Virus record (IMG/VR): IMGVR_UViG_2724679172_000017
Length of the DNA: 4,628 nucleotides
Strand: one strand, 5' to 3'
From: a virus
Taxonomy: Duplodnaviria; Heunggongvirae; Uroviricota; Caudoviricetes
Below, piece by piece: positions 1 to 813 of this stretch (its first letter is position 1; each line of letters opens with the position of its first letter). Position numbers and translations under genes: made by a program. Below the pieces are notes generated by a model. The model was not told where the DNA came from. It did no database searches and was given only the letters and a program-made list of their open reading frames with translations.

Positions 1-804
1 CTGATAAGCCTGGTTGACGGAAGTGGCAATCCGGTCAGCGTGGAGGTTCAGTCCGTCACCGACGGCGTGAAGGTAAAAGTGAGCCGTGTTCCTGACGGTG
101 TTGCTGAATACAGCGTATGGGGGCTGAAGCTGCCGACGCTGCGCCAGCGCCTGTTCCGCTGTGTGAGTATCCGGGAGAACGATGACGGTACGTATGCCAT
201 CACCGCCGTGCAGCATGTACCGGAAAAAGAAGCCATCGTGGATAACGGGGCGCACTTTGACGGCGACCAGAGCGGCACGGTGAATGGTGTCACGCCGCCA
301 GCGGTGCAGCACCTGACCGCCGAAGTCACCACAGACAGCGGGGAATATCAGGTGCTGGCGCGATGGGACACGCCGAAGGTGGTGAAGGGCGTGAGCTTCC
401 TGCTTCGCCTTACCGTGGCAGCGGACGACGGCAGTGAGCGGCTGGTCAGCATGGCCCGGACGACGGAAACCACATACCGCTTCAGGCAACTGGCGCTGGG
501 GAACTACAGGCTGACAGTCCGGGCGGTAAATGCGTGGGGGCAGCAGGGCGATCCGGCATCGGTATCGTTCCGGATTGCCGCACCGGCAGCGCCGTCGCGG
601 ATTGAGCTGACGCCGGGCTATTTTCAGATAACCGCCACGCCGTATCTTGCCGTTTATGATCCGACGGTACAGTTTGAGTTCTGGTTCTCAGAAAAGCGGA
701 TTGCGGATATCAGGCAGGTTGAAACCGCAGCCCGCTATCTTGGCTCGGCGCTGTACTGGATAGCTGCCAGTACCGCTATCTTGGCACGGCGCTGTACTGG
801 ATAG
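1..804 (+). CDS. J: J-like host-specificity protein, upstream ORF fragment (5' partial; ends prematurely after the frameshift, tail ...[11 protein letters not shown] is out-of-frame junk)
   Basis: ORF track 40..804 extended to the window start in the same frame, with no stop between 1 and 39. FN3-like motifs are present ([19 protein letters not shown]). It terminates at TAG 802-804 inside the second copy of the duplication. Confidence 0.55.
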
Positions 805-813
805 CTGCCAGTA
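732..813 (+). repeat. 41-bp direct tandem duplication (two copies, 1 mismatch) inside J, causing a +2 frameshift
   Basis: Copy 1, ~732-772: ccgctatcttggcTcggcgctgtactggatagctgccagta. Copy 2, ~773-813: ccgctatcttggcAcggcgctgtactggatagctgccagta. The single difference is 745 T vs 786 A (Ser vs Thr codon). Boundaries are ambiguous by about 1 nt. Confidence 0.9.

Follow-up and report, generated by a model that had tools for sequence, protein, structure and literature searches.

An apparent frameshifting 41-base duplication in the J gene of an Escherichia coli prophage, very probably an unmerged join in a draft assembly

Gene content of the window

The window, that is, the whole stretch of 4,628 nucleotides analyzed here, contains the 3'-terminal 55% of a lambda-type J gene, followed by a side tail-fiber gene and two hypothetical genes. 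It corresponds to nucleotides 1 to 4628 of contig LRPA01000017.1 (locus L004) of the draft E. coli genome GCA_001550005.1, with a single difference at position 772. Two J genes are distinguished below: J1, the J gene of the prophage adjacent to the sit genes, and J2, the J gene of a second lambdoid prophage. The J sequence of the window consists of two pieces. Piece A (1..771, plus strand) is read in frame 1, covers J codons of about 520 to 776, and carries J1 alleles over positions 1 to 598 and J2 alleles over positions 599 to 771. It encodes the Pfam domain Ig_J and the first half of Ig_J_second. The J part of piece B (773..1967, plus strand) is the 3' end of J1 and encodes the rest of Ig_J_second, Phage_Tail_Tip, and the receptor-binding domain Ig_GpJ_C. 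The window therefore contains the domain series of the J family, Ig_J, Ig_J_second, Phage_Tail_Tip, and Ig_GpJ_C, with Pfam matches above the curated cutoffs for all but the two fragments into which Ig_J_second is split. The genes upstream of J are the tail genes L, a K-like peptidase, and I, as shown by the gene order at loci L001, L010, and L011.

Lambda gpJ has the same domains as this J protein, and the peptide motif encoded by the repeat described below occurs once in each. The two proteins are 93 to 98% identical in the first 300 residues of the alignment, which starts at residue 520 (residues 520 to 820). The J gene described here is longer, with 1160 codons compared to 1132 in lambda, and the C-terminal receptor-binding part (window positions 1510 to 1967, ∼150 codons) shows only about 20 to 46% identity. 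This mosaic pattern of identity, as read from the sequence, suggests a receptor specificity different from that of lambda. With so low an identity, binding to LamB, the receptor that the first-pass annotation mentions for this region of lambda gpJ, is not to be assumed.

The J stop codon is immediately followed by a terminator-like hairpin at 1986..2005 on the plus strand (GGGCACC-AGAAAT-GGTGCCT), behind which lies a run of T's. The side tail-fiber gene (2026..4047, plus strand; 673 amino acids) contains a phage_tail_N domain, an Ala-rich center, and a divergent C-terminal part. Its open reading frame (ORF) is uninterrupted in the window, and identical DNA is found in complete genomes (7985 to 10006 at L001 and 4985 to 7006 at L011). 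The RefSeq annotation of relatives splits the gene into a "partial" N-terminal pseudogene and a separate "phage head spike fiber domain" coding sequence, which is probably an annotation quirk caused by a chimeric fiber with an Ala-rich linker. Two further ORFs overlap each other between positions 2267 and 2761, one of 149 amino acids on the minus strand and one of 158 amino acids on the plus strand and out of frame, over the Ala-rich GCN repeat of the tail-fiber gene; base composition, rather than coding function, most likely accounts for them. The tail-fiber gene is followed by a hypothetical gene for a protein of 92 amino acids (4044..4322, plus strand; WP_000654172.1 in relatives), which shows no Pfam match, and by another of 97 amino acids (4335..4628, plus strand; WP_000355360.1 in relatives), the final prophage gene before sitDCBA. 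Several complete genomes that are otherwise 99.8% identical (H71 to H80) carry an IS4, IS3-family, or IS5 element between J and the tail-fiber gene, as does locus L002 (11159 to 12487). This suggests an insertion hot spot or the decay of the prophage.

Reading frames and copy number of the repeat

The window contains a single tandem array according to Tandem Repeats Finder, located at 732 to 813, with a period of 41, 2.0 copies, 97% matches, no indels, and a score of 157. The sole difference between the two 41-nucleotide copies is a T at position 745 and an A at position 786. The repeat sits within the second Ig-like domain of J (PF24489), halves of which are detected by Pfam on each side, and its unit is ordinary coding sequence. 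The frame-1 ORF of J extends over 40..804 and ends with the TAG codon at 802 to 804. The frame-3 part remains open up to the TGA codon at 1965 to 1967, with GTG at 858 as its earliest start codon. Piece B lies in frame 3 solely because of the extra 41 nucleotides: with one repeat copy removed, a single open frame of 641 codons results, which shows 99.5% identity to J1 residues 520 to 1160. The first-pass annotation thus describes the supplied window correctly with regard to a two-copy, 41-nucleotide repeat with one mismatch at 732 to 813 and to a J gene broken into a frame-1 piece ending at 802 to 804 and a frame-3 piece running to 1967. Its description of a peptide encoded twice holds for the two copies but not within one frame, as copy 1 reads the motif in frame 1 and copy 2 reads it in frame 3 only. 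Copy 2 is the lambda-like version, as that annotation also states; lambda gpJ contains the motif once, at residue 764, in the Thr form.

Searches of other genomes reveal one copy of the unit. A 441-nucleotide query across the repeat has matches in 4,516 complete-genome records of E. coli and in 159 records of phages, and each match listed for this query spans 400 nucleotides in two pieces, which corresponds to one copy. Many complete genomes match the entire window at 99.8%. Among the best whole-window matches, those without an insertion sequence (H81 to H95) span 4587 nucleotides, i.e., 4628 minus 41, and are thus single copy, and the spans of H71 to H80 are longer only through the IS element between J and the tail-fiber gene. 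Genomes that are equal to piece B and its downstream sequence (773 to 4628) and differ from the window only within 599 to 745 encode an intact J protein, WP_000515553.1, of 1160 amino acids, in a lambdoid prophage whose final genes abut sitDCBA. No copy number polymorphism of the 41-nucleotide unit is seen; every other J gene examined, including that of lambda and those in the 159 phage records, has a single unit. The single-copy alleles for which the first-pass annotation proposed an alignment are therefore present in lambda and in the complete genomes listed, and homologues carrying both copies in frame, which it had regarded as excluded by its frame arithmetic, are not seen, the matches listed being single copy.

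A 28-nucleotide junction query shows no match in the representative genomes of GTDB (one genome per species), in IMG/VR, or in JGI metagenome contigs; this query contained A at position 772 and would miss records bearing an N there. Overall, neither the junction nor the mosaic of piece A described below is found in 5,426 complete genomes or in the three contig collections.

The product of the downstream ORF (369 amino acids, window positions 858 to 1967) was also looked up as a trace of independent assemblies and is called in 38 blocks of the collection. Among the places shown, from which 13 similar places are left out, the duplication is the cause of this call only at L004. Elsewhere, the call is caused by a contig end (L006 and L007), a run of N's (L002), a sequence riddled with indels (L003), upstream DNA of foreign origin (L005), or a nonsense codon (L008 and L009). 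At L005 (1 to 105 of ERZ27280072:k141_4308), unrelated DNA without a Pfam match replaces J upstream of the equivalent of window position ∼680, which could be the end of a mobile element or a chimeric contig. L008 (∼6025 to 6047) and L009 (∼2258 to 2280), on the metagenome contigs ERZ28568226 and ERZ27285829, show a TAC-to-TAA change in the motif (...RYLGTAL*) of a J1-like J gene, at a site equivalent to window positions 783 to 805 or to a single-copy coordinate of about 756. Judged by its sequence, J appears to be genuinely truncated here by a nonsense mutation, and the nonsense codon leads to the call of the same downstream ORF of 369 amino acids.

Two J paralogues and position 772

J-like places are found with a median of 2 per genome and up to 10 to 12, with 3 to 4 per related genome. 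J2 lies about 156 to 160 kb from the locus matching the remaining window in EC1, NMBU-W13E19, and KE40, in the context of a second lambdoid prophage with lom and then a different tail fiber downstream. A three-way comparison with the two genes of KE40 separates the origins of the two pieces. J1 and J2 of this genome are identical from −1089 to 299 and over the 64 nucleotides from 535 to 598; they differ at 14 sites in 300 to 534, at 8 sites in 599 to 745, and at many sites from 783 on. Piece A matches KE40 J1 perfectly over 1 to 598, with mismatches only at 599, 612, 618, 642, 643, 690, 727, and 745, whereas its mismatches to KE40 J2 are confined to the 14 sites in 300 to 534. It thus carries the J1 allele at 14 of 14 sites in 300 to 534 and the J2 allele at all 8 sites in 599 to 745, position 745 included, so that its last 173 nucleotides (599 to 771) contain every J2 allele. 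In 23 complete genomes, a J2-type gene is 100% identical to window positions 560 to 771. The mosaic of 250 to 771 has a best match of 98.9% in any complete genome, and each of its halves is found at 100%. By these allele patterns, piece A is a J1/J2 chimera with the switch located inside 535 to 598, the stretch in which the identity of J1 and J2 leaves an assembler using a short k unable to separate the paralogues.

Piece B is in the J1 state from its first base. Over 773 to 4628 (3856 nucleotides), the window shows 0 mismatches to the J1 locus of CFSAN061770 (L001) and of KE40 (L011). The T/A difference between the copies, i.e., a Ser codon (TCG) in copy 1 and a Thr codon (ACG) in copy 2, is the difference between the J2 and J1 alleles and is linked to 7 more J2 alleles upstream. 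The first-pass annotation read this difference as an argument against very recent simple slippage or as a sign of a recombination-derived junction. The origin from two alleles agrees with that reading, except that the "recombination" would have occurred in the assembler.

The window and the public record disagree only at the copy boundary. Position 772 (772..772), the last base of copy 1, is an N in LRPA01000017.1 and an A in the window. This is the only N within the 11,967 nucleotides of the contig that were examined. The deposited sequence accordingly consists of piece A (1 to 771), the N, and piece B (773 onward), i.e., a 40-nucleotide imperfect repeat flanking an N: the last 40 nucleotides of piece A (732..771, plus strand), with the J2 allele T at 745 in the Ser codon TCG, are repeated with one mismatch by the first 40 nucleotides of piece B (773..812, plus strand), with the J1 allele A at 786 in the Thr codon ACG, as in lambda. 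Across the join, the window reads GCTGCCAGT-A-CCGCTATCTTGG, and the junction sequence, which passes from J2 alleles (left) to J1 alleles (right), is ...GGATAGCTGCCAGTACCGCTATCTTGGCACGG.... The gene for the downstream product has identical coordinates, 858 to 1967, in LRPA01000017.1. A frame-1 truncated product with Thr at the join codon was looked up, and none is on record, which fits the version with N (X in the product) as the only public one. The N was presumably turned into an A during preparation of the window, a procedure that appears to substitute real bases for ambiguous ones and can create false features in this way. With A in place of N, an arrangement of 40 nucleotides, N, and 40 nucleotides looks like a clean 41-nucleotide repeat in two copies together with a frameshift. 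The A at 772 coincides with the base expected of a perfect duplication, which counts against an artifact.

Origin of the apparent duplication

Taken together, the sequence comparisons indicate that the 41-base "duplication" is very probably the unmerged overlap of two draft-assembly pieces and not a feature of the genome, in which J1 would most probably be a single-copy, intact gene of 1160 codons. Unmerged contig overlaps at scaffold joins are a known class of false tandem duplications in draft genomes; a single N stands in where the estimated gap size is zero or negative, and the overlap amounts to about k−1 in de Bruijn graph assemblers. The present case resembles this class in several respects: the N falls exactly between the copies, the 40-nucleotide block fits k−1 for a k of 41, the gene is multicopy and located close to the end of a contig, each side derives from a different repeat copy, and the repeat is absent from finished genomes. 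Contig LRPA01000017.1 begins inside J, as short-read assemblies are expected to break in a repeated gene. In contrast to a plain overlap of pieces adjacent in the graph, the overlap here contains one mismatch. The N at the join, the origin from two paralogues, and the single copy elsewhere speak for a sequencing or assembly error, an option that the first-pass annotation had also named.

The proposed course of events starts from a strain with at least two lambdoid prophages bearing nearly identical J genes. The assembler would build one piece following J1 to about nucleotide 598, slip onto J2 within 535 to 598, and stop at 771. A second piece of pure J1 would begin 40 nucleotides upstream of the end of the first. 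In a scaffolding or gap-closing step, both pieces would then be set side by side with the overlap unmerged and a single N as a placeholder. Presumably, the overlap stayed unmerged because of the J1/J2 polymorphism (T versus A) inside it. The exact behavior of the assembler, including the correspondence of the 40-nucleotide overlap to k−1 for a k of 41, is deduced from the deposited sequence; a literature search found no paper on LRPA00000000, LRPA01, or GCA_001550005. The exact piece ends, 771 and 732, do not follow from a de Bruijn graph with a k of 41 built from J1 and J2 of KE40 alone. Ends at these positions would call for further J paralogues, coverage gaps, or the action of a gap closer. 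Another origin considered within graph assembly, a bubble of 2k−1 (41 nucleotides for a k of 21) written out in series, was rejected, as the polymorphism lies at offset 14 rather than at the center (offset 21).

A real 41-base duplication, formed by illegitimate or unequal recombination between J1 and J2 of resident prophages, would frameshift J and inactivate the tail tip protein, with the N as a coincidental ambiguous call. Resident lambdoid prophages are well known to recombine with each other, the repeat is present in the deposited sequence, and the single N might conceivably mark an ambiguous base rather than a join. Prophage J genes do decay, as illustrated by the TAC-to-TAA change in the same motif in two metagenome contigs, and IS elements lie just downstream of J in several genomes. 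The arrangement also resembles the inactivated J genes of cryptic lambdoid prophages, which are likewise read as two ORFs, but the lesion here coincides with a gap marker and a change of paralogue and is known from one draft record only, with no second occurrence in independent sequence of the same lineage. A real duplication would furthermore need two crossovers, one from J1 to J2 in 535 to 598 and one back from J2 to J1, 41 nucleotides out of register, the latter being an illegitimate exchange without microhomology at the join. The only N in about 12 kb would have to fall exactly on the copy boundary, all sequence to the right of it equals the intact locus, and the mosaic and junction are absent from the complete genomes and contig collections mentioned above. 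A real duplication is therefore unlikely. The frameshifted J gene of a defective or cryptic prophage in the first-pass annotation is not supported for the same reasons, namely, the N at the junction, copies from two paralogues, and the lack of a two-copy genome elsewhere. Genuine conversion of J1 sequence by J2 in the region 599 to 745 was also considered and rejected; it explains only the mosaic of piece A and does not account for the N, the repeated block, or the J1 state of piece B from its first base on.

Two further explanations are weaker still. A sequencing or consensus error, for example from polishing, in a truly contiguous piece rather than at a join of two pieces would account for the N as a mark of uncertainty at base 772, and reads from J1 and J2 would cross-map in this region. 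Base calling and polishing do not create a repeated block of 40 nucleotides, however, and the clean switch from J2 to J1 alleles at the N would be left unexplained, so that such an error is very improbable; it would still make the feature an artifact, with the same practical verdict. The other explanation, also raised in the first-pass annotation, is a slippage-prone site at which the 41-nucleotide unit toggles J on and off as phase variation of host range. Its appeal lies in the frame arithmetic alone, since 41 is not a multiple of 3 and the copy number would toggle the frame. The unit shows no polymorphism in copy number, every other J gene examined has one unit, the unit is ordinary coding sequence in the second Ig-like domain, an N stands at the join, and the copies carry different preexisting alleles of two paralogues, which slippage cannot produce. 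Such a switch is effectively excluded.

With the repeat read as an assembly join, its biological weight is small: the window would hold an ordinary lambda-type J gene, probably intact, of a common E. coli prophage adjoining sitABCD. The display of an N as a base turned a flagged assembly join into a convincing false frameshift, and such positions should be retained or masked when draft genomes are scanned. Apparent frameshifts in multicopy prophage genes near contig ends should be compared with finished genomes before a pseudogene or a switch is called.
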